Of a stretch of DNA of 64,000 nucleotides, positions 1,858 through 36,200 are shown piece after piece (positions within the stretch are counted from its first letter, which is position 1; every line of letters starts with the position of its first letter). The DNA lies in IMG/VR virus record IMGVR_UViG_3300044712_000786, positions 64,001 through 128,000 of that record; one strand, 5' to 3'. A program made the position numbers and the translations under genes. The DNA comes from a virus (lineage: Duplodnaviria; Caudoviricetes). The notes beneath the pieces were generated by a model. It had not been told where the DNA came from. It did not search any database and saw only the letters and a program-made list of their open reading frames with translations.

Positions 1858-3708
1858 CTAAATCATCATAGGAACGAACATTCCAGTGCTCGTATCCTTA
1901 GGTTGTCTCATGATGTCAAAATAGCACTTATTGGCCCAATTACCCAATAAAAGAGCAGTATAATTGTCCTTCCTAGCCCTATCTACCGAAGTGCTTCTTT
2001 TAAGGTGAAGGGGCAGGTCAAACGATTGGGTTCCCTTAGCTGTAGATTTTACTTCAATTAAGGCACACTGTTTCTTAACGTCATTAATTAATCTATCCTG
2101 AGTATCAATAAGGTCAATTATAGATTCTTCTTTTAACAAGTCCATCGGAATCTTAGCCGAAGACTGAGTAGATAAAGCCGAACCATTAGGATTAATTCTG
2201 GAGCCGAACCATACCTTTTTATGGTCTATGCTAGTCTGTAATAACACGTTAGCATTTCTAATAAAATCGCTGGAGAACACTTGCTTAGTGACAATTCTTC
2301 CACCAATCTTATTTTTACTGTATTGTTGCCTAGCGGTTTTTAACATTACTTCGTAATCCTGTCCGATTAAGTCGCTATCAAAATCTATGAAATCAAAACT
2401 AATGCCAGCGCGTTTAAATAGTTCACTTTCCGTCGCGCTATCAATAAACTGGAAACCTGCATTATCGATTGTGATATATACGATATCAAAACTATTTACT
2501 AAGTAGTATAGATAAGCAATGTGCTCTTTTAAATCTCCACCCGCTACCGCATAATTATGGACTACAGTAGGAACCTCAGTAGCTTCATCTATTTCCATTA
2601 AACACATAGCGAAAAAGTCGCTTGTGGGAGAGTTACTAAAGCTAGGGTCAATCGCTAAGATATACTTTTTATCTCCAGTTCCAACTAACTTAAGAGTCGT
2701 TTCTTCTCCGTCTGGGATTGTGCAAATCTGCATCTTCTTAGCTGAGAAATATCCCTCGCTATCGTCTACAAAAGCTGCTCCATACTCGCGCATGAAGGAG
2801 GAATGAGAAGACCCACCATCTTTTGCCGCCTGAATGATTTCCTGAGAAAGCATGTGCGAAGGTAGGGCTTCATAGCTCATTTGAGCGATGAAATACTTAG
2901 ATGATGTTATCTCTGGGGACTTGATATTATCAATAAATTCGCAGTATTTTTGATATAAATACTCAAAAGTATAGCTAGCCGAAGAAAGAAAAATAACCCT
3001 AGTTTCGTTCTCGAAGACAGTCCTTTTAGCGGGGTCCAACTTGCCTTCTTTAATAAGCTTATCTTCAATTTCGGTAACTCTAATTCTCTCCTTGACGTTC
3101 ATGGGGACGCTCAAGAAGGGGGTCAAAACAGACTCAACAATATCCTGAGGCATTAATAGGAACTCGTCAATAATCAAGACGTTAGCGCGAAAACCACGAA
3201 CCTTATCACCGCTAAGAGGAATAGCTGATATAGTAGAAACGTCTCCCGTAGGATGAGCCATGTTCCATTCGAATAAGTCGTTTCTTCTCTGCTTTAGTCC
3301 GAAAGCTTGCTGCAAAATAATAGAGCTAGGTGAATCTACTATCTTTTCTAATTCAGTAAATATATGTCTAGCTGTTCTGAATGTAGGGCCAGCTATGATA
3401 ATCTTTGCACCGGGATTAAAGATGGGATACAAAAAGCAAAAGAAAGCCGCCATGGTACTTTTAGCTCCACCACGGGAAAGAACCGCGAGACTGAAGTTTC
3501 TATTAAACCATGCTTTAAGCATGATTTCCTGATAAGGAGCTAACTTAATACCACTAAATAATTCGGTGGCTATATATAGATTATGTCTAAGGAATTTTAC
3601 CAAACTGGACTGAGCTTGCTTATCTTCTAGCTCCCCTGTTAACTCCATTAAGCCTTGATTAACGTCAGCCAAGTTTAACTCGTATTTTTCTGGGCACCAA
3701 AAAGCCAT
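1858..3708 (-). CDS. terL: Terminase large subunit
   Basis: Walker A-like SRGGAKST, Walker B LIIDEF, coupling motif FLSSA, C-terminal RNase H-like nuclease LAIDPS and late Asp (RKDNY); 616 aa next to the portal. Confidence 0.9.
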   Translation of the reverse strand: MAFWCPEKYELNLADVNQGLMELTGELEDKQAQSSLVKFLRHNLYIATELFSGIKLAPYQEIMLKAWFNRNFSLAVLSRGGAKSTMAAFFCFLYPIFNPGAKIIIAGPTFRTARHIFTELEKIVDSPSSIILQQAFGLKQRRNDLFEWNMAHPTGDVSTISAIPLSGDKVRGFRANVLIIDEFLLMPQDIVESVLTPFLSVPMNVKERIRVTEIEDKLIKEGKLDPAKRTVFENETRVIFLSSASYTFEYLYQKYCEFIDNIKSPEITSSKYFIAQMSYEALPSHMLSQEIIQAAKDGGSSHSSFMREYGAAFVDDSEGYFSAKKMQICTIPDGEETTLKLVGTGDKKYILAIDPSFSNSPTSDFFAMCLMEIDEATEVPTVVHNYAVAGGDLKEHIAYLYYLVNSFDIVYITIDNAGFQFIDSATESELFKRAGISFDFIDFDSDLIGQDYEVMLKTARQQYSKNKIGGRIVTKQVFSSDFIRNANVLLQTSIDHKKVWFGSRINPNGSALSTQSSAKIPMDLLKEESIIDLIDTQDRLINDVKKQCALIEVKSTAKGTQSFDLPLHLKRSTSVDRARKDNYTALLLGNWANKCYFDIMRQPKDTSTGMFVPMMI

Positions 3709-4700: not shown

Positions 4701-5727
4701 GGGCGGATAGTTTCTCTATTTCGTCGCCCAGAAGTCTTTTTCTTTCTTCCGCATACTCTATAAGTCTCTTTCGTCCCTCTTCCTCTTTCCATACTTGGAC
4801 TAAATTAAGGACAGTCGCGTTTTCTTTAATTTGGTCTTGTATTCTCTGACTGCGTTCTTCAGTTAAAGCCTTAAATAGCTTCTGCTGGCGTTGCACGCTA
4901 GAATTGTGCTCCGTTCGGGCAACATTAATAGCTTCTACTAACTGCATGGACATTTTTCCACCCTCTTGGACTATTTTAGTCTGCTCATTTTGAAGCATAT
5001 TAATAGTTCTTTGAATGCTAGAGGCCATAACAACTTCCGTGCATAGCATAATATACTGGTCTATATCTTCCTTAGTAAGGTCGGGCTTATCAAAGGTATA
5101 TTTAATAAAGCTGCTTTCAAATAGTTCCCTGTCTGACTTAGTATCATAGGTTTCCATCTGATATACGAACCTGAAATCATGGAGGTAAGTCATCAGAGAT
5201 TCTATCTCTTTTCTTATCTTAGTAGATATGGTTTTGTAGTCGTAATTACAGCCATGAACATATTTATTAACTCTCGCAACTGCCCTATCTATAGTATTGG
5301 GGGCTTTATATTCGGCTTCAACTGAATTAGGGTCCTCGAAAGGAGAAACTCCCTCTAAGTTTTTAATAAACGATAATACTAACTTGACTTCCGAATGTAA
5401 ATTAGTTAGATTGGGATTATTAAATAAGATTTGGGCTATCTCGAAAGCCTTCATCGTCTGACAGTTATTCTTAATATATTCTTCCTGCTCGGGGGTTAGG
5501 GTAATAGCTGGTTTAACGATGGGCGCAGATTGATTTTTAGGAACTATTTTTCTCTCCGCAAGAAAGCTCTTAATAAGTCTTGCGTGTTTGGTAGTTCCCT
5601 TGTCGCTAACATCAGGTCCGAAAGCCAGACGAATTAACTCTGAAATAGATGGAGGGTCATAAGGTCTATTATTCCACTCGTCTAGGATTTTTTGCTTCTG
5701 TTCGTCTGTTAATGTTAATTCGCTCAT
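4642..5727 (-). CDS. Hypothetical helical protein, possible small terminase subunit
   Basis: 361 aa, two N-terminal HTH-like repeats (LTLTDEQKQKI / ITLTPEQEEYI), coiled-coil C-terminus. The function is inferred from position upstream of terL only. Confidence 0.4.
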   Translation of the reverse strand: MSELTLTDEQKQKILDEWNNRPYDPPSISELIRLAFGPDVSDKGTTKHARLIKSFLAERKIVPKNQSAPIVKPAITLTPEQEEYIKNNCQTMKAFEIAQILFNNPNLTNLHSEVKLVLSFIKNLEGVSPFEDPNSVEAEYKAPNTIDRAVARVNKYVHGCNYDYKTISTKIRKEIESLMTYLHDFRFVYQMETYDTKSDRELFESSFIKYTFDKPDLTKEDIDQYIMLCTEVVMASSIQRTINMLQNEQTKIVQEGGKMSMQLVEAINVARTEHNSSVQRQQKLFKALTEERSQRIQDQIKENATVLNLVQVWKEEEGRKRLIEYAEERKRLLGDEIEKLSALDETKARIFGLSRGEVFNG

Positions 5728-6416
5728 AGAATATCTATTTCGCCTCTATTTAAGCTTTCTTTTACCTTCTTCATAATCGTCTTTCGAAGGTTTTTAATCT
5801 GTTTGTAACCGGGAGCGCGATGTTTTTCTGAAGTTTTAAAGCCCATAATTGCCGCCGCTTCTTCTTCGCTCTTATGCTCAATAAATAAGAGCTTGTAACA
5901 TTTCCACTCCGAAGGCTTTAGAATCTCTTCCATTCTTTTGTGAATATTGGGGGCGGTCCTTTCTATATCTATAGTATCTTCGTAACGGTTGAACACTTCT
6001 TGAGTATGATTGTCTAATGGGACTGGCAACTTAGTATCATAGGCACGCTTTTTAGTCTTTTCCCATCTAGCATAAAGAGGACAAGTAGAGCATTGCTTAG
6101 TGTATATGTTGCATAAGTCATCCCCTTCCGCAGCAGCACATTTTAAGCATGGCCTTGAGAAGTTATAATACATATTCCTAATCAAGTTCTTAATTTGACT
6201 AGAAATAACGGTATTAATCCAAGGGGCTAAGGGTCTGCTGGCATCATAAAGATGCCACTTCTTAAATATATGTATCCTAAGGATTTGCGCAACATCATCG
6301 AAATCGAACCAAGATAACGCCGTCAGGGTCCAACGGCTCTTGCGCTTATTTATTTCGTTATCTATCTCCCCGATATGCTCTTCGAAAAGGGGAGCATTTT
6401 TTTTGCGTCGGGGCAT
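5724..6416 (-). CDS. Sigma-70/ECF-like transcription factor with Cys-rich insert
   Basis: Region-2-like DDVAQILRIHIFKKWHLYDASRPLAPWINTVISSQIKN; region-4-like LKPSEWKCYKLLFIEHKSEEEAAAIMG; CxxC...C...CxxC between them. Confidence 0.75.
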   Translation of the reverse strand: MPRRKKNAPLFEEHIGEIDNEINKRKSRWTLTALSWFDFDDVAQILRIHIFKKWHLYDASRPLAPWINTVISSQIKNLIRNMYYNFSRPCLKCAAAEGDDLCNIYTKQCSTCPLYARWEKTKKRAYDTKLPVPLDNHTQEVFNRYEDTIDIERTAPNIHKRMEEILKPSEWKCYKLLFIEHKSEEEAAAIMGFKTSEKHRAPGYKQIKNLRKTIMKKVKESLNRGEIDIL

Positions 6417-7216: not shown

Positions 7217-7947
7217 GCTATAGGAGCATGAATAGCTTCCAAAGCACTTACTAAGAACTTAAGGAATTCGGACCTAACAATGTCCTCTTTCCCAAATTTA
7301 AAATGGTAAACTCCATGTTCAGCCGCTCCCTCATAACTAGATAAGTGATTGGCTAAGGTCTCAAATCCGCCCCGATTACCGTTCTTTAAGTCTGTCTGAC
7401 TAGGGTCAGCGATAACGAAACACTTAGAAAAGTGACCGAAACGAGTTAGAATGGTTACTATTTCCTTCATGGAGCTATTTTGAACTTCGTCAAATACTAT
7501 TGCTTTTGCGTTCCAGCTTAAACCACGAGCGAAATTAGTTGGAAAAGCAACAGCCCTCTCTTGTTTAAGGAGATTGTCGGCTTCCTGCTTGGGGAGTAGC
7601 TCTTGCAGCTTATCCATAAACGGGATATTATAGAACTGCATCTTATCACCTATGCTTCCCGGTAAATAGCCTGTTTTACTATCCGAACTTTCTACAGCGG
7701 ACCTTACGTAAATTAATTCCGAAACCCTCTTTTCATTTAATAGCTTTAAAGCACAGTAAATAGAAATTAAAGTCTTGGAAGTTCCCGCGCAACCAGAAAC
7801 AAACATAACTCTAGTATTCTTGTCTAGAGCTAATTTTATGAATTCTTTTTGTTTTTCGGTCCAGTTTAATTCTCTGATGTTCAAAATACCCTGAAGCTTA
7901 TCCCTTTGATGAACGTATAACGACTCGTCCTTGTTTCTTTTTTTCAT
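7213..7947 (-). CDS. phoH: PhoH-family ATPase
   Basis: GCAGTSKT Walker A, RSAVE...GYLPG, RGLSW, DEVQN, DPSQTDL, FGKEDIVRS. Confidence 0.92.
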   Translation of the reverse strand: MKKRNKDESLYVHQRDKLQGILNIRELNWTEKQKEFIKLALDKNTRVMFVSGCAGTSKTLISIYCALKLLNEKRVSELIYVRSAVESSDSKTGYLPGSIGDKMQFYNIPFMDKLQELLPKQEADNLLKQERAVAFPTNFARGLSWNAKAIVFDEVQNSSMKEIVTILTRFGHFSKCFVIADPSQTDLKNGNRGGFETLANHLSSYEGAAEHGVYHFKFGKEDIVRSEFLKFLVSALEAIHAPIA

Positions 7948-8066: not shown

Positions 8067-8101
8067 TTGACAAGATTTAAAACTATTCCTAGAATTAGGT
8101 T
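8067..8101 (+). promoter_or_regulatory. Sigma70-type promoter, leaderless transcript
   Basis: TTGACA-N17-TAGAAT-N6-ATG(8102). Confidence 0.75.
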
Positions 8102-8311: not shown

Positions 8312-8514
8312 TAACGGAACTAATATTCATCCTTATAGGATTTGGCTTATTATTCCTAAAACTATGGTTTCCCATCCCTTGGTTGGTTATCCTAGCGGTG
8401 GCGACATTCCCAATGTGGTTTGGTTGGCTCTTTGCCATTAGCGCTTTTATTTTATCGTTGCTCGCCGCTTTCTTAGGCGGGGTTTTAATCTGGATTTTTG
8501 GAAAAAGCAAATGA
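8278..8514 (+). CDS. Small membrane protein
   Basis: Two or more hydrophobic segments; overlaps its neighbours. Confidence 0.55.
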   Translation: METSKRKSGSLITELIFILIGFGLLFLKLWFPIPWLVILAVATFPMWFGWLFAISAFILSLLAAFLGGVLIWIFGKSK

Positions 8515-9083
8515 CCCTACAGGACAGAATTGACAATTACGTTGCCGAGACTGGGTTTCCTAGAACTTTATTTTTAGGAGAAGATGGGCGTCTAGTCGGC
8601 ACTTGGGTTATGGGAAATAACTATCATGTCACAACTAGCTATTATGGAGGTTATCCTCACGGTTACTTAAAACGAATTAAGGCAATGTTTCCCGATAAAC
8701 GGAACGTGCTTCATCTTTTTTCGGGCAAGGTAGACACGAAAATTATTCCCGGTCAAACAGTTGATATAAATGATACAAACAAAGCCGATTATGTAGACGA
8801 TGCCCAAGAGTTAACAAGCGTACCTCTGGAACTCTTCGACCTTGTTTTAGCTGACCCCCCTTACTCCGTAGAGGACTGCGACCACTACCAAACTACGATG
8901 ATTAAACGGAACAAGGTAATGGACGCTCTAGGGCGCAGACTTTCAACTAAAGCTCATGTTGTTTGGCTTGACCAAGTACTTCCAATGTATCGTAAAACAG
9001 ATTTCGATATGGTAGGCGTTATCGGTATGGTAAAGTCTACAAACCATCGTTTTCGAGTAATAACTATTTTTCAAAAAAAATAA
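8511..9083 (+). CDS. Amino-methyltransferase-like protein
   Basis: VLHLFSG (SAM-binding-like) and DLVLADPPY (N6A/N4C catalytic motif). Confidence 0.65.
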   Translation: MTLQDRIDNYVAETGFPRTLFLGEDGRLVGTWVMGNNYHVTTSYYGGYPHGYLKRIKAMFPDKRNVLHLFSGKVDTKIIPGQTVDINDTNKADYVDDAQELTSVPLELFDLVLADPPYSVEDCDHYQTTMIKRNKVMDALGRRLSTKAHVVWLDQVLPMYRKTDFDMVGVIGMVKSTNHRFRVITIFQKK

Positions 9084-9270: not shown

Positions 9271-9456
9271 ATGTATACCCTATATTTCAAGCATGAAGGG
9301 AATTGGTATCATTACGCCACTTTTGACGGTAGCGAAATTCCTAAATATGTAGAGTTTATAAAAGTAGATAAAAAAACTAAATTTAGATTAGTCAAGACTG
9401 AGCTTCTGGTTGAGGGGACGGCTGAACGGGTTGCGAAGACTTTAAGCGAGCTTTAA
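9271..9456 (+). CDS. Hypothetical protein
   Basis: 61 aa ORF in operon context. Confidence 0.45.
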   Translation: MYTLYFKHEGNWYHYATFDGSEIPKYVEFIKVDKKTKFRLVKTELLVEGTAERVAKTLSEL

Positions 9457-9682
9457 CGATATACTTTTCCTTGATTTGCTTTAATAAATCTGGATGTGCG
9501 GCTTGCCATTTCTTAGCATTACTTACGTAACGTTCTTTATTCTGTTGATAATGAGATTTCTGGCGTGCATCTTGACAAGACTTACAATCATATCTCAGTC
9601 CATCTTTAGTAGCCGACTGTTTACGAAATTCGCTAATAGGCTTTTCAACTTTGCATTTGGAACAAGTTTTCAATATATCCAT
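9392..9682 (-). CDS. Homing-endonuclease-type N-terminal Zn domain without nuclease domain
   Basis: KTCSKCKVEKPISEF...RYDCKSC matches the N-terminus of the HNH at 50228 (KICTKCLINKPLDEF...RSDCKIC); GTGTAA upstream. Confidence 0.6.
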   Translation of the reverse strand: MDILKTCSKCKVEKPISEFRKQSATKDGLRYDCKSCQDARQKSHYQQNKERYVSNAKKWQAAHPDLLKQIKEKYIVKARLKSSQPVQPSPQPEAQS

Positions 9683-9706
9683 ATAGATAGATTACACACA
9701 ATTAAG

Positions 9707-11880
9707 GATTTTTGAAAAATTATTTATGAATGAAGATGTCAAATTTTCTGATACGGGCGAAGCTCACCTTCACCCTAATACAGACTGCCCTTATGCTGGA
9801 GACTGTCTAGTGGAAATAACCGATGGCCAAGAAAAATATGTCTATTGCGAGGGGTGCGATAAGACTTGGAACGTAAAAGAACTTAAAACTATATGAGACC
9901 AGTCCATAACTCAATTGTCTTCTTTAATAGAACTCTTTATAGACAATACCCAATGACCTTCGATTGCCGCAAAATTCTTAACGAACATATGGAATCTAAA
10001 GTAATCCCCCTACATAATAGGTTTGACAAAGAGGGATTTTTACAACTACCTAATTATGGGAAATTGTCTGGGATTTTTGAAAATAAGCTATGAAACAACA
10101 ACGCTCTCGCATTTTTCCAGAAGTGTTTGATATAGTAGGAGGTAATCGAAACTACGCGTTAATCCGTAGTAATATAAGAATGCTCGTATTTAATTTTCGT
10201 TATCAGGATACAATTAATATAGCTAACAATATCATGGACACTTATAAATATGAATAAGGTTAGCCACCACTTCTTTAATCAATTTAATATAGGCGAGTTA
10301 ATGCGAATAAGGGCCTTAGCCAATCATCTTGATTTCATTGAGAGAGGATTTCCAACTTATGGTTTCGCGGCGGTTATTAAAAACAATTTAGCTCATTGTC
10401 GTTTTGTAGATTTTTGAAAAATACCTTTATGAAGAGTGTCACCCACCTTATCGATGATAACTTTTTTTCATTATTAGAAAATAATGTTCGACATAGTTGT
10501 ATCGACAATGTCCGAGTTAATATGAGGTTTCTTGTTTTTAACAGGGGTCAAAGAATGACGGACAGTATCAGTATGGTTATTTATGAAGGGTATGATTTTT
10601 GAAATATGAAATCCGTAGCTGTCCAAGTTCGCTTGCCTCATTTAGACGTTGATTGTGATTGCATGTGGGAATCTGTATACTATAACATAGAAATAAAATT
10701 AGCTCGTATAGCAAGACTAAGAGACCCGATAAGATTTGGGTTGGAAGAGATTTTTGAAAAATATGAATAGTGTCGGGTTCACATTTGATAGCTTCACAAT
10801 CCAAATGCTTTTCAGTGCTAATGTCAAATACTCTTTTGCTAACAGTAATATATTTGGGACTTTTACTCTTGCCCTGAATATAAAGCATAATTTAAAGGGT
10901 CTATATGAAGAAAATTAAACGCACTTTAGGACCCCACGGTTCCCCTCTTTCTTATCTATTATCCTATCCTCAATGGTTAATATTCGAGAACTACATGGAC
11001 AAGCATTCTTTCAGACCTAATAGAATATTCTACTTAAATCCGTGCGGTTTTCTAAAGTTTGATTATAATGCGATAGATTTTTGAAAAATAACTATGAATG
11101 AATTAGCCCCCCATTTTAATGATTTTATGACTTTCAGTATGGATATTACTGCGCCTGCAATCAACTCAAACCTTGTTTTTGATTCATATAATATGGCGTT
11201 TAATATAAAGTATGATATATGGCTAGATGATAATGTCTATGATGAAGTAAACCTAAATGAACTTTTAATGTGGGAAAATATAGACCATGATTTTTGAAAC
11301 ATGAATAGTTTAAGAGCCCCCCTTGACCATTTCATAACCGACATAATTCAACGCCAGCTAGTCTATCCCTATCCTTTTTTCTATGGCTTTGCCTCTTATG
11401 GAACGGCTGCAATCTTTCGTTTAAATCTAGCTCTACACGCTTATAACGAAATAGGAGACATCGATATATCAAGATTTGCTCCTTTGTCTCTTACCTCTAT
11501 TCCCAGTGGTTTAGACGTTGATGATTTTTGAAAAATTACTATGAATAGATTGCGCGACCATTTTCTCACCTTCGTCCATCACACTCTTATACATAAACCC
11601 ATTTCTTCCGAAGTTTCTTTCACTGGATTTATGTCTTATATGAACGCTTTGACTATTAAGGTTTCATTGTATCGATACGTAAGGAATAGAGATAAAGTAT
11701 TGTTGGATTTTTGAAACTTACTGAACGGGAATATACCGTCCCGTTTTTTCTATATTAAGCGATGTTGTTCCCTAGCGGGAATATTAAGCGAGATTTTTGA
11801 AAAGTTTATTAAAATGTCTTTTTTGGTGCAACATATGAGAGTATACGTAAATACATATATTTATGTATAGATTTTTGAAA
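9707..11880 (+). repeat. 11 copies of GATTTTTGAAA separating mini-ORFs
   Basis: Copies start at 9707, 10072, 10409, 10594, 10749, 11076, 11289, 11523, 11706, 11792, 11870. Confidence 0.9.
9726..11714 (+). other. Tandem array of 11 short ORFs (51-76 aa)
   Basis: Manual translation: 9726-9896, 9893-10093, 10090-10257, 10250-10417, 10429-10602, 10606-10770, 10763-10918, 10905-11084, 11094-11297, 11301-11531, 11541-11714. All abut or overlap; six end in DF-stop. Confidence 0.75.
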
Positions 11881-12046
11881 ATATCTAGTTTAGTGAAAAG
11901 GGGTGGAGTGAAGTCAAGCACCCCCCCCGCCCATATAAATTTCGCTAATGGGCATTTTTTCAAAAACACCCCCCCTACTGGCCCCTCCCCCGTCATTAGA
12001 CAAACTAATATTTGAATTAAAAAAAAGGGAGCATAAGCTCCCATAA

Positions 12047-12253
12047 TTAGCACACTCGCGCATCACATACCCTTACAGTATGACCCAAGCTATTAATGAA
12101 GCTGATATGTTCGCCCCGCTCATTAGTCACAAGGCCGATGGCCTTTTCGCATAAGGCTTGCTCATTACGTTCGCGCAACTTGCGCGTGCTAATGTAACGT
12201 TGGCTACGTTGTTTGGCTATTACGTTTCCTTGTGCATCGCGTACGATAATCAT
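12047..12253 (-). CDS. Hypothetical protein
   Basis: 68 aa; followed by hairpin GGGAGC-TTAT-GCTCCC plus T-tract at ~12019-12042. Confidence 0.55.
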   Translation of the reverse strand: MIIVRDAQGNVIAKQRSQRYISTRKLRERNEQALCEKAIGLVTNERGEHISFINSLGHTVRVCDARVC

Positions 12254-13175: not shown

Positions 13176-14021
13176 TTATGCTGCCATCGCTTCTTCTGTT
13201 ACTGCCTGCTCTGCTTTGTTCTCACCTAGCAACCAGTCAACGCGCTTTTGTGCCTGCCCTGCTGCTGCTATAACTAGCTTAGTATCACTACCTAACCTGC
13301 TCGCCCATCCCCTAATGTATGCAACAGAGTTATTATAGACATTGCTTGCATCTATGCCTAGGCGAGCTAAGAGCATATTAGCTCCAATCTCAGCAACTAG
13401 CTCTTCTTTGCTATACTCTTCTCCCACTCCTACAGTATCCTTGCCATCGACAAGCTTGCCAGTCCAGTGAATCAATTCATGCGCGAGCGTAGTCCAGTAA
13501 CCCTCATTAGTAGCAAACTGTTCTTTATTAGGCATTTGCACGTAATGCTCGCTAGGCATATAATACGCACGATTGCCACCATGCCGCAAGTCAACATTAT
13601 GCTTGCTAATAACGTCCATTAGGTTAGTGTCAACCACTACGTTCTTAACCTCAGGCAGCTTAAAGCCATGATTCTCAACATCATCAAGAGAGAATACGTT
13701 GTAGTAACGTAGCATAGCCCAACTTCTCTCTAGCGTGCTGCCATCACTACCCTTAACAGCGTCAAATTTCTTCCAAAAGCAGATAGGATAAGCCTTGCTT
13801 CCCTTCTTAATGTAGCCACCACGTTCTTTGATTTGATTGAACGTAGCAAACCACTGGCCTTTACCTACTAAGGACAACAGAAGGAGGTTAATGCCACGAT
13901 ACTGCTTTTGGGTTAGTGCGTTCTTAGGCCATACCATAGTCCAATCACGTTGCCAAGGCAAGGTCGAACTATCAGTAATGTCTTGTACGATTTTCGAAGT
14001 AATAATGTCGTAAACGTTCAT
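13176..14021 (-). CDS. ardC: ArdC-like antirestriction/ssDNA-binding protein with metallopeptidase domain
   Basis: LPWQRDW...YRGINLLLL, YYNVFSLD, GGNRAYY.PS.HYVQMP, HELIHWTG, YSKEELVAEIGA. Confidence 0.9.
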   Translation of the reverse strand: MNVYDIITSKIVQDITDSSTLPWQRDWTMVWPKNALTQKQYRGINLLLLSLVGKGQWFATFNQIKERGGYIKKGSKAYPICFWKKFDAVKGSDGSTLERSWAMLRYYNVFSLDDVENHGFKLPEVKNVVVDTNLMDVISKHNVDLRHGGNRAYYMPSEHYVQMPNKEQFATNEGYWTTLAHELIHWTGKLVDGKDTVGVGEEYSKEELVAEIGANMLLARLGIDASNVYNNSVAYIRGWASRLGSDTKLVIAAAGQAQKRVDWLLGENKAEQAVTEEAMAA

Positions 14022-14055
14022 AAGCTTATAATAGGCGTTCTTTTTGAGAAGTCAA
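14022..14055 (-). promoter_or_regulatory. Leaderless sigma70-type promoter of ardC (type example of a window-wide family)
   Basis: TTGACT-TCTCAAAAAGAACGCC(16)-TATTAT-AAGCTT-ATG. Confidence 0.85.
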
Positions 14056-33200: not shown

Positions 33201-36200
33201 CACCAGCCGCGCCACCTAATCATCAATGGAAACTGAAGATGCCAATAGTTAATCTTACCATTAGCCTTCAAAGCTTCCCCTTTCATGCTGTAAAACCCTT
33301 CAGGAGTAGCACAGGCGGCACAAAGCCTAGGATTCCCGCCCAAGATGGGAGGGTTAAACTTCCCGCAATTATCGCATCTTTTAATCTTCATATGTTGCGC
33401 CAAACAACTTCCCAATAAACCGTAGAACGAATATCGGGTCTAAGTTTAATTTTAAACCTAATTCCTTGTCTGACAACGTGAAACACCCCCGCATCTAATG
33501 CTTCGGGCCAGCCTCTTCCGCCATCAAAATGGATTCGTTTCATATTTCCAAAAATCTATTTAGGGCACTTAGACAGGGCTTTTTCCAAAAGCTCAAAAAA
33601 TTCGTCTTGAAAGCCAATATTAGGACTTCCGTAGTCTTCGGGGGTCTCGAACTGTTCAATATTATCTAATTTATTCACATGGGTCAAACCTGACCTTACC
33701 ACACTGTTAGAGCTTTCACCGATGATAGCCAGAAGAATATAGGCTTCCTTGGGGCTCAGAGTTAAAACTACGTCAATTTGTTTTGATATAAGGGCAGCTT
33801 TCATTTTTCAATTTTAGCAGTTATTTTCTCAGGGTCAAGGCTAAGATAAAAAACGAAATTGTATATTAACCATTTAGCTTGAATGTTTGTTGGGGGACGT
33901 AAAGCTACATGAGCTTCATCTACGGGACGAGTATTGACTATTTTGCTTAACTTATTAAATGCGTCTATAGATGCATCTTCCCTAAGTCGAAACAAGCTCT
34001 TCATAAGTCTCTATGTAGTTGACAAGGTTGGTTAGATGAATCCAAGGGCAAGCCTCGTGCGGGGCAAAGTGTTCTACTTCAAGACGATAATTCCAAATCT
34101 CATGATTAAAACGGAGTGTATAACTAAATGATTTCATGTATCACAAAATAGTCATTTCATTTACGTCGAATAGCCAATCGTAAAGTATCCATACATGCTC
34201 TTTAATCACTTTAGTTTCTAATTCTTCCGAAACTTGCACTAGAATCTTACTTTGTAATACCTCGCCAACGTGAGGATAGAAAATTAAGCCACTTACATTA
34301 GTCATATTTTAAGCCCCAAGATATTATCCATTTGTTATTGCTTTCTATGTATGGCTCTATTCCTTCCTGAATCTCTAAGATAACGTCATAAGACATCACT
34401 CTAAATAAGTCAACGTTATAGGGGCGGTCACCACAAAATTGAGCCCATAAGCTTTTCATTTTCAAAAATCCAACATTTCTTCTAGCTTGCGACATACTCT
34501 TCCATCTAACCTATGCATAAAATTACCCGCTCCTCCTACAATAAGCTGTTGTTCAAAGGTAATGATTTTATTACCCATTTGTCTTATTACAAGACCAACT
34601 AAATTATAACCGACCTTTTGCGTTACGGGACTCCAAAGCTCTTGACTGTCCATAAATTGGAATTTAAATTGCTCCATCTGTTTCCTTAACTTCTATAGAG
34701 ATAGGCCCAACAAATCTAGCTATTGCCCTCACTTCTTTAGTAACTTGCCTTATAACTAATAAATCTACTTCCGCGCATAGAGAATACCAAGGGGAAAGAT
34801 TCATTCTATTTTTGATAGACTTCATTTATAACTTTCGTAAATAATGGAGCTACTACGAACCTAAAGGTTATGTTTATTTTGTCTCTAGCTAAGCCTCTAA
34901 GATTTTTATTAACCATCTTGCTTATGTAATAACAAAGCATAGGGTCAATGGGATATTTAACTGGCTTCATATCTTCCAACAGCCGCTTTTAATTGTAAGC
35001 AAGATTCAAAGTAAAGAACGCTAACCTTTGTTCTAAATTGTGCCCGAGCTGAGCTAGTTGTCTCTCTATTTAATGTAGTAAAAGACTCGGTGTCACAGCC
35101 CCAAATTAACAGATGAACGCTATTCATGTATATTATCCAAATTCTTCAAGTGACAGACCTTCTACCGTTCGATGTTTCAAATAAAGAGCCGAACAATTAA
35201 ACTCTATCTCTTGCAAAGATATTAAACACTGGATATAAGAAAGGCATTCTTTGCTCTGAGACCAGCAAACCGCATTATAACTATTAAAGATGTCTCTTAC
35301 TGTATTCATTCTAGCGTCTTTTTTTCCCAGAGCAAGCTATATTAAGAGATTAAATGAAAAATACCGTTCAATGACCTAAAAAAAGCGATATTCCTTTCTA
35401 TTCCTTCTTCCGCTTCATAATAACGGCCATTACTAACCTCGAATACAGATAACTTATTACGAACTGACTTCATAATTCCAACTTACGTATTCCTTGGGGA
35501 TAGGTATTCTCGGCATAAATTGCCCTAGCCACCATAAAGCAGAAGCCTCTTCTAAGTTATGAAAGGCATCCGCTCTAACCCAATATGATACGTCATCTTG
35601 GAAGTCTCCCCAAATGTCATAATTCAGGTTAAAAACTTCAATTCTCTTCATAATGAAATAGATTTCTAGGAATAAATATCAACTGCTCTCTTATTATGAA
35701 TAGCCTAGAACTAACTTCTATTGACCTGTAAGTAAGATTTCGCACGTCAACAGAAAGAGGAATTGCGGACCATATGCAAGTATCTATTCTATTAAACTCT
35801 CTACGTAGAGATACCATAATGCCTTACTCCCCTATAAACACTATTAGATATTTCATAAACATCTGTCATACCATATCTTACGTCCTGAATGACCCTTCTA
35901 ATGAATTCTCCTTCTACATGATAGAGTAACTCATCGAATACGATATTAGACAATCCTTCGGGCGTTACTGCAAGAACCTTTTTCATCTAAAGCTTTCTTG
36001 GAAAACAAAAATTTCCTTTTCAAAGCTAACCTCCCTATAGAAACTAGAATTCGGACCCATTAAAGCTACAATCCAGTCATCTAGCTCTAATGCCGCTAGC
36101 GCTATATCAGTCATGTCTCCATTTATAAAATGACTCCTAACCGTCTGCCAATCGGTAGTTTTTTCTCTAAAAAATTCCCTTAAGTTCAGCATAGATTGCT

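Follow-up and report, generated by a model that had tools for sequence, protein, structure and literature searches.

Short invariant words recur at the seams of phage accessory-gene arrays, and three described kinds serve here as points of comparison. The start-associated sequences (SAS) of Cluster K mycobacteriophages are asymmetric 13-bp words present in 11 to 19 copies, nearly all in one orientation, that typically lie 3 to 7 bp before the mostly ATG starts of non-structural genes and sometimes hold the upstream stop codon; their function is unproven, a translational role has been proposed, and no other phages carry the word (Pope et al. 2011, PMC3203893). The stoperators of L5 and the Cluster A mycobacteriophages are asymmetric sites of ~13 bp at short intergenic stop/start boundaries, and their orientation follows transcription (PMC9283540). 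The promoter early stem-loop elements (PeSLs) of T4-type phages join a sigma-70 promoter and a terminator stem-loop in a mobile regulatory cassette (Arbiol et al. 2010, PMC2839356). In this study, we investigated GATTTTTGAAA, an 11-mer that punctuates an array of small open reading frames (ORFs) in the tailed phage recorded as IMGVR_UViG_3300044712_000786. The stretch analyzed, called the window below, is 64,000 nucleotides long and comprises bases 64,001 to 128,000 of that complete 202,704-bp virus record, which has direct terminal repeats and 39% G+C and comes from rhizosphere metagenomes. Coordinates are those of the window unless marked as genomic.

An invariant 11-mer in a mini-gene array

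The reading that we favor, and hold tentatively, is that GATTTTTGAAA acts at the level of mRNA as a start/stop-associated element for translation (re)initiation or factor docking. We lean toward it because its spacing to the ATG is short but loose, as in a ribosome-binding site; because the UGA in the motif is often the stop codon of the preceding ORF, the junctions have the geometry of coupled cistrons, and no Shine-Dalgarno (SD) sequence is present; because the array has no promoter-like site and a single terminator closes the chain; and because the SAS of Cluster K mycobacteriophages provide a precedent (PMC3203893). The motif would then be the junction signal of one polycistronic mini-gene operon and would act on the mRNA as an SD-free site of translation (re)initiation. 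A ribosome would terminate at the UGA in the motif, or arrive de novo at copy 1, and then restart at the nearby AUG. The invariant word may dock a ribosomal component or an RNA-binding factor encoded by the phage or the host, and a docked factor could switch the mini-gene set on or off jointly. The array would have grown as cassettes were duplicated in tandem along with their junctions, with a few unrelated mini-ORFs added, and copies 9 to 11 may be the outer seams of that duplication process or extra factor sites.

The clustering of the motif is confirmed as highly non-random. Fourteen exact copies occur in the 64-kb window, 11 of them on the plus strand within the 2.2 kb from 9707 to 11880 (starts at 9707, 10072, 10409, 10594, 10749, 11076, 11289, 11523, 11706, 11792, and 11870), whereas 100 dinucleotide shuffles of the window give a mean of 0.23 and a maximum of 2. 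Across the 202,704-bp genome GATTTTTGAAA is the most over-represented 11-mer: it occurs 16 times, and an order-3 Markov model predicts 0.47 occurrences; 11 of the 16 fall inside the array, where all are co-oriented. A first-pass annotation made from the letters of the window had reported eleven exact copies at spacings of 78 to 365 nt and had proposed that the motif be counted genome-wide; both its count and its spacings were reproduced, and the genomic count extends them. The information profile of the 11 copies is a sharply bounded block of exactly 11 invariant positions, with a weak A-A-T preference on the 3' side, and this block is asymmetric, with no dyad symmetry beyond a partial A/T mirror. 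No conservation was found in the 45 nt upstream of the copies, nor any -35, -10, or extended -10 partner. In composition the motif is G-A-U5-G-A3, that is, A/U plus two G.

The array consists of 11 head-to-tail plus-strand ORFs of 51 to 76 amino acids (aa), running from 9726 to 11714. Stop and start codons lie within -14 to +11 nt of each other at all ten internal junctions; the motif is present at seven of these, and copy 1 precedes the first ORF. The first-pass annotation had placed eight copies 1 to 9 nt before the next ATG, and the distances from the end of the motif, taken in order for copies 1 to 8, are indeed 8, 7, 9, 1, 3, 7, 1, and 7 nt. Each of the eight ATGs opens an ORF of 51 to 76 aa. 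The range is 0 to 9 nt overall, or 4 to 12 nt when measured from the GAUUUUUG core, and the distance from GATTTT to ATG varies from N6 to N14 at the eight array starts. No GGAG-type SD sequence stands before the motif-linked starts, and neither GGAG nor GAGG is found nearby. Six copies were said to encode the D-F-stop of the ORF before them, and all six ORFs that end in GAT TTT TGA were located (10250-10417, 10429-10602, 10905-11084, 11094-11297, 11301-11531, and 11541-11714). Two copies (2 and 5) read ATT TTT GAA (I-F-E) inside the preceding ORF, and three are non-coding. Because the motif is preserved whether it is translated in either of two frames or not translated at all, selection acts on the nucleotides and not on a peptide with a D-F C terminus.

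The same word serves junctions of different makes along the array (all coordinates in this paragraph are on the plus strand unless marked). Copy 1 (9707-9717) heads the array, 8 nt before ATG 9726, with no plus-strand cistron upstream, and overlaps the promoter region of the divergent gene at 9392-9682(-). Unit 1 (9726-10093) joins a 56-aa ORF with a CxxC, Zn-ribbon-like pattern (9726-9896) to a 66-aa ORF (9893-10093) through an ATGA overlap that carries no motif. Copy 2 (10072-10082) is read in frame as ATT TTT GAA (..GIFENKL-stop), 7 nt before ATG 10090, where unit 2 (10090-10417) begins; its two 55-aa ORFs (10090-10257 and 10250-10417, the second ending in DF-stop) overlap by 8 nt, again with no motif. 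Copy 3 (10409-10419) provides the DF-stop of 10250-10417 and is followed after 9 nt by ATG 10429, which opens a 57-aa member of the cassette family described below, itself ending in DF-stop (10429-10602). Copy 4 (10594-10604), also a DF-stop, lies 1 nt before the in-frame ATG 10606 of a 54-aa ORF outside the family (10606-10770). This ORF reads through copy 5 (10749-10759) as ..EEIFEKYE-stop, and copy 5, lying within it, is 3 nt before ATG 10763. The unit that starts there (10763-11084) combines a 51-aa family member (10763-10918) with an unrelated 59-aa ORF that ends in DF-stop (10905-11084), across a 14-nt overlap that has no motif. Copies 6 (11076-11086), 7 (11289-11299), and 8 (11523-11533) each supply a DF-stop and are followed by an in-frame ATG, at 11094 after 7 nt, at 11301 after 1 nt, and at 11541 after 7 nt, respectively; these open family members of 67 aa (11094-11297), 76 aa (11301-11531), and 57 aa (11541-11714), the last being the final cassette. 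The divergent gene at 9392-9682(-), which lies antisense between an upstream plus-strand operon and the array, encodes a 96-aa CxxC...CxxC protein with a GTGTAAT-N8-ATG start; its similarity to phage endonuclease VII / HNH families (PHROG 1035, E = 1.5e-14) is confined to their zinc-binding part.

The 3' end of the array departs from this pattern. Copy 9 (11706-11716, +) forms the DF-stop of the last cassette and has no gene after it; the sole intrinsic terminator of the array, an 8-bp stem with a T run (11723-11746, +), lies 6 nt past it. Copies 10 (11792-11802, +) and 11 (11870-11880, +) sit in the non-coding spacer where plus- and minus-strand transcription converge. An ATG 11 nt after copy 10 opens only an 18-codon micro-ORF, which ends at copy 11, and no ATG follows copies 9 and 11. 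Between the terminator and copy 10 a direct repeat, ATATTAAGCGA, occurs twice within 11745-11791, the second one abutting the motif. Copy 11 borders a C-tract island (11880-12060) that is flanked by two convergent terminators and has no Rfam match. The plus-strand RNA from copy 11 folds better than shuffled sequences (z = -3.15), and UUUUUUCAAAAAC (~11955-11967), which is complementary to the motif core UUUUUGAAAAA, is exposed in a predicted single-stranded stretch of the island.

Outside the array, the motif takes the same junction role between unrelated genes at three places, which argues that it is more than a duplication scar. An exact copy at 34460-34470(-), already noticed in the first pass and confirmed here, lies between an ORF that ends in ..MLDF-stop and an ATG that follows directly (MKSLW..), the two genes being unrelated. 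A one-mismatch variant, GATTTTTGGAA, stands at 8493-8503(+), 7 nt before ATG 8511 of a conserved 190-aa methyltransferase-like gene, and the same variant occurs at 33546-33556(-), directly after the preceding TAG stop and 2 nt before ATG 33543. The 190-aa gene belongs to the plus-strand operon upstream of the array, which is headed by sigma-70-like hexamers at 8067-8095. Its product (8511-9083, +) is a DPPY methyltransferase-like protein found at 70 to 84% identity on thousands of metagenomic contigs, some of them 200 to 360 kb long; the gene is a core gene, conserved to an unusual degree, in a broad group of large phages, and its neighborhoods are non-syntenic.

Gene expression and cassette proteins of the phage

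The virus is a large tailed phage whose genome carries a terminase (1858-3708, -), PhoH, a sigma-like gene (5724-6416, -), an ArdC-type anti-restriction gene (13176-14021, -), and many tRNAs. Two promoter-like classes can be recognized. About 50 sites of the form TTGACa-N16-TAttaT-N6-ATG, found by regular expression, make up an early class that lies nearly all on the minus strand between 14 and 63 kb of the window; examples are at 14055, 15966, 16579, 17400, 18539, 22694, 29104, and 59292 (all -), and the hexamers occur also at 8067-8095 (+). Their spacer holds a conserved T-run/A-run (ttTtAAAAAg). Such sites are predicted to be sigma-70-type promoters giving leaderless mRNAs that start at the A of the ATG, often with one promoter per mini-gene. 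The shorter pattern TAnnnT-N6-ATG has 57 regular-expression matches, and ~43 predicted genes have an early-type leaderless promoter. A resemblance of the early-promoter spacer to the array motif (TTGACTTTTGAAAAAT versus nnGATTTTTGAAAAAT) can be seen. The late class is marked by GTGTAAT, which lies 7 to 8 nt (sometimes 15 to 25 nt) before the ATG in more than 25 (~27) late or structural genes; it is found, for example, at 7947 (PhoH), 6839, and 9682 in the window (all -) and at genomic positions 28272, 37132, 40571, 46479, and 65840. This is plausibly a second promoter-like class, mostly leaderless, that would be read with the phage sigma-like protein (5724-6416). No T7-type or multisubunit RNA polymerase was found encoded in the genome, and the sigma-like gene is the only one detected.

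A third route to 5'-proximal start codons involves the tRNAs. In 11 occurrences of CCAATTTATG, small ORFs start within the word, exactly 4 nt past the tRNA 3' CCA; these words lie at 136903-147371 (-) of the genome, past the end of the window, with one copy at 34660(-) of the window, and a tRNA-Gln called by ARAGORN ends at genomic position 140638, inside one of them. Starts placed 4 nt after a tRNA 3' CCA imply the use of processed 5' ends, and the arrangement looks like tRNA punctuation yielding near-leaderless mRNAs. GGAG-type SD sequences, for comparison, are found at ~12% of predicted gene starts versus 5.6% of all ATGs. Since they are few in the genome and absent from motif-linked starts, the inner cistrons of the array would need another start signal.

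Judged from sequence, the motif is neither of the two promoter classes, because it has no partner hexamers and its GATTTT-ATG distance varies while both classes are strict. No match to TTGACa-N16-TAnnnT-N6-ATG occurs at any array start (9.7-11.9 kb), and no promoter-like site lies within the array or is co-located with copies of the motif. There is no terminator between the sigma-70-like promoter hexamers at 8067-8095 and the array, so that operon runs in unterminated and the array would need no promoter of its own.

The ORFs between the copies had been called dissimilar in the first pass, and this proved to be incorrect for most of them. Relatedness was assessed by pairwise BLASTP, alignment, and leave-one-out profile tests with 500 shuffles each. 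The ORFs starting at 10250, 10429, 10763, 11094, 11301, and 11541 form one diverged family (0 to 1 of 500 shuffles reach the real score), and the ORF at 10090 is a borderline member (13/500 shuffles), giving six or seven diverged paralogues; the four others, at 9726, 9893, 10606, and 10905, have no detectable relation to it. The family pattern is MNxLxxHFxxF...Y..A..IK.NL...DF. The coding sequence that flanks the motif has diverged to ~25 to 35% amino-acid identity or to no similarity. The array therefore arose mainly through tandem duplication, and it includes a few mini-ORFs of other kinds. An M-[KN] start, which had been given as the one feature shared by the ORFs, is present in the array but is not specific to it, as 42% of all predicted genes begin with ATG-AA versus 12% of all ATGs. 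A profile of the family searched against 5.8 billion and 1.84 billion proteins recovered only the phage's own copies, and PHROGs and Pfam held no match for it; by these searches it is an orphan family. AlphaFold2 modeled the 76-aa cassette as helical, but the predicted local distance difference test (pLDDT) score of 54 makes the model unreliable and too poor for a fold search.

Relatives of the locus were sought in several ways, and none of the searches described here turned up another phage that carries the array. A blastn search with 9-13 kb found no match in 50,697 GenBank phage records. With the ArdC neighbor as the query, IMG/VR gave no relative, and metagenomes of the Joint Genome Institute gave only homologues of 31 to 45%, none from a relative of the phage and none with the motif. 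The terminase relatives from IMG/VR (54 loci, ~55% amino-acid identity) carried neither the 11-mer nor a junction repeat like it, and contigs carrying homologues of the 190-aa neighbor (70 to 84%) were not syntenic and had no motif upstream. Scans for double motifs in IMG/VR (four spacings) and in GTDB genomes returned chance matches only, which were set aside: baculovirus hr repeats, giant-virus leucine-rich repeat (LRR) genes, a paralogous coding repeat, and 56-nt AT-rich satellites in Bacteroidota metagenome-assembled genomes (MAGs). In the last of these (MAG contigs L107, L132, L141, L196, and L225) the 11-mer is part of a ~56-nt AT-rich tandem satellite, ..AAAATTTTGGAC-GATTTTTGAAA-AAAATTTTTTT.., that has no association with genes. 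Other assemblies of the array are the same phage, and the readable one (L063) is 99.96% identical with the same order of cassettes. A soil run (DNA contigs) holds a relative that is ~92 to 95% identical around 12-14 kb, with fragmentary cover of the array. Loose ends near copies (10595, 11067, and 11524) gave matches of ~35 nt at 80% likeness, which is within chance, and were not used.

A start/stop element and its alternatives

Several features of the locus weigh against an element of translation. The full conservation of copies 9 to 11 is not explained by a pure start signal, since copy 9 is not followed by any gene and the other two stand in non-coding DNA past the terminator. Three internal junctions (9893, 10250, and 10905), at which stop and start overlap, do without the motif, and three exact copies elsewhere in the genome run antisense to genes. 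The spacing from motif to ATG is bimodal (0-3 and 7-9 nt) and not centered on one optimum, perfect identity in 11 of 11 copies is stricter than is usual for ribosome-binding sites, and AU-matched 11-mers are predicted to be just as accessible in RNA as the motif. A hunt for a candidate factor in the genome found no RegA, Hfq, or S1-domain protein. The first-pass annotation had offered translational coupling as one of two options, and of the two it agrees better with the anatomy: ten of ten junctions are close, the spacing is loose at 1 to 9 nt, and there is one terminator.

Copies 9 to 11 are more easily accommodated by a site that works on DNA. If a monomeric phage protein bound the asymmetric 11-bp word and blocked RNA polymerase in an orientation-dependent manner, as at a stoperator, the mini-gene operon would be silenced and read-through into the convergent early region would be halted. 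A site of this kind would account for copies 9 to 11, at the end of the operon and the convergent junction, and for antisense or intragenic copies elsewhere; the motif is also asymmetric, co-oriented with transcription, and located in very short spaces overlapping stop and start codons, like L5-type sites (PMC9283540). Against this, known stoperators belong to temperate phages with an immunity repressor, and no integrase or resolvase was detected here. The sites are packed in 2.2 kb instead of being spread genome-wide, a roadblock does not require a tight link to the ATG, and no cognate binding protein was identified. We consider such a roadblock unlikely, and the silencing and read-through functions that go with it equally so, though it fares best among the alternatives to an mRNA-level start/stop element.

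The perfect conservation of the word would also suit the recognition site of an enzyme. A sequence-specific endoribonuclease that cut the polycistronic RNA at each copy would leave short leaders for a leaderless-adapted translation, and this is a doubtful proposal that we place next. It is equally doubtful in its most explicit form, in which cleavage at every GAUUUUUGAAA would act as RNA "punctuation," turning the inner cistrons into near-leaderless mRNAs in a counterpart of mitochondrial tRNA punctuation. The phage does rely on 5'-proximal AUGs (~43 early-promoter genes, ~27 late-motif genes, and 11 tRNA-linked ORFs), each unit has a copy at either end (n+1 in all), the last one standing at the 3' end ahead of the terminator, and GA/UUU matches the preference of RNase E (R-N/W-U-U). 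However, with an AUG spacing of 0 to 9 nt the leaders would differ in length, whereas the spacing after tRNAs is fixed at 4 nt; three junctions have no site, and no candidate nuclease was found.

On the opposite strand, mini-genes as a rule have a promoter each, and the motif could by analogy be a single-element promoter of a third (middle) class, in which GATTTT would serve as a -10-like hexamer and TGAAA as a conserved discriminator, used by host RNA polymerase and a phage factor. GATTTT keeps the A at position 2 and the T at position 6 of a -10 hexamer, no other promoter lies within 9457-9725, and a leaderless geometry is seen at copies 4 and 7 (GATTTT-N6-ATG), at 34460 (N5), and at the variant at 33556 (N7). 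Each unit would then have one mRNA of its own, leaderless or with a leader of 2 to 8 nt, and copies 10 and 11 could drive the micro-ORF and the structured RNA (z = -3.15). The lack of a -35 or extended -10 element and the ATG distance of N5 to N14 fit poorly with this, as both proven-looking classes are strict. Copy 9 is just 6 nt before the terminator hairpin, the genome encodes no phage RNA polymerase, and its sole sigma-like gene is more plausibly tied to GTGTAAT. The array is also transcribable from the sigma-70-like promoter at 8067-8095, with no terminator between. We judge a promoter of this kind improbable, and the per-unit mRNAs that it would give no less so.

The other option raised in the first pass was a recombination seam, at which the motif, through microhomology or an enzyme, is the crossover point for duplication, loss, and exchange of cassettes in the manner of a gene accordion, an integron, or PeSLs. 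The paralogues record repeated duplication, with unrelated ORFs interspersed, and n+1 copies bound n units, including units of 86 and 78 nt that hold no mini-gene; PeSLs offer a precedent for regulatory repeats as crossover sites (PMC2839356). Most cassettes, however, are in-situ paralogues and not imports, and the other readable assembly has the same cassette order at 99.96% identity. Eleven base pairs are short for homologous exchange, the motif has no dyad symmetry, and no tyrosine or serine recombinase was detected in the genome. Neither the purifying selection on every base nor the closeness of the copies to ATGs is explained by recombination alone. The comparisons made here lend a recombination seam no support, and it ranks lower still in our assessment.

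Recoding, with UUU-UGA-A as a leaky or shifty stop that fuses neighboring cassettes into multi-domain proteins, is very improbable: four consecutive cassettes (10905-11714) do share one frame, parted only by the motif TGA, every motif spacing from copy 5 to copy 9 is divisible by 3, 10429 is likewise in frame with 10606, and taking TGA as sense gives an open frame of more than 300 codons that crosses the terminator and reaches copy 11, but junctions 2, 3, and 5 are out of frame, TGA ends 25 of 103 long genes, ARAGORN finds no suppressor tRNA, and the coincidence of frame is weak evidence because in-frame junctions are partly copies of each other (J6/J8 and J4/J7). Recoding of TGA throughout the genome was dropped on the same stop-codon and tRNA counts. 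Three further candidates were also dropped: a Bacteroidota-type TAnnTTTG promoter, as the phage's own promoters are TTGACA/TAnnnT; a CodY box or other dimer operator, as conservation is asymmetric; and iterons, pac sites, or Chi, as the positions are tied to gene seams.

Comparison with known systems

The motif is an A/U-rich junction word without SD content, in an unusual phage dominated by leaderless genes. Since the word lacks an SD sequence and the phage is otherwise leaderless, a translational role could not come from ordinary rRNA pairing. Recruitment of a dedicated factor by the word, if it occurs, would represent a new way to translate or silence inner cistrons, and, were the favored start/stop reading true, synthetic operons in hosts poor in SD sequences could use the word as a compact and portable linker. 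A further lesson of the array is how a constrained seam and tandem duplication can jointly build an orphan mini-protein family beside anti-restriction genes.

Two repeat classes are easily set apart, and the first-pass opinion that the motif resembles neither was borne out by its length, symmetry, and spacing. The attC sites of integrons are ~57 to 141 bp long, imperfect inverted repeats that fold as a hairpin and lie adjacent to an IntI tyrosine recombinase; the motif is 11 nt long, has no dyad beyond the partial A/T mirror, and is found in a genome from which PF00589 is absent throughout. CRISPR repeats are 23 to 55 bp, with a regular period and non-coding spacers, whereas this 11-nt repeat has an irregular spacing of 78 to 365 nt, its "spacers" are ORFs, and no Rfam family was matched. 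The operators of T4 RegA, A/U-rich sites that many early mRNAs carry at their start codons, come closer, as sites of this type would let one protein control a gene set translationally; they are degenerate and overlap the AUG, in contrast to the invariant word described here, and a family search found no RegA homologue encoded in this genome.

Like PeSLs, the copies belong to a plastic early region, where they separate small non-essential ORFan genes, and are possible crossover points. PeSLs bound insertions, deletions, and replacements between related phages. The copies of the motif differ from them in having neither promoter hexamers nor a hairpin, and the cistrons abut without terminators up to the single one after copy 9. 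Stoperators share with the motif an asymmetric site, a position in short intergenic spaces, and an orientation that matches transcription; theirs are spread over temperate genomes and bound by an immunity repressor, whereas here the sites are clustered and tightly tied to ATGs, and no lysogeny module was detected.

The nearest likeness is to SAS. In both cases a short, asymmetric, co-oriented word (here with 11 copies in the array and 16 in the genome) serves genes that belong to different families. Eight of the 11 array copies lie 1 to 9 nt before an ATG, some hold the stop codon, and three junction-role copies are found elsewhere. The sequences themselves are quite different: SAS (GGGATAGGAGCCC) has an AGGAG SD core, while this motif has no GGAG and is not complementary to the CCUCC anti-SD, although CCUCC may not be the 16S rRNA end of this host. 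There is also no upstream inverted repeat of the kind seen in the extended SAS (ESAS), the copies are packed in one 2.2-kb operon, and three of them are not start-linked. We conclude that the motif is not a member of the SAS and has no sequence or phylogenetic relation to them, but would be functionally like them.

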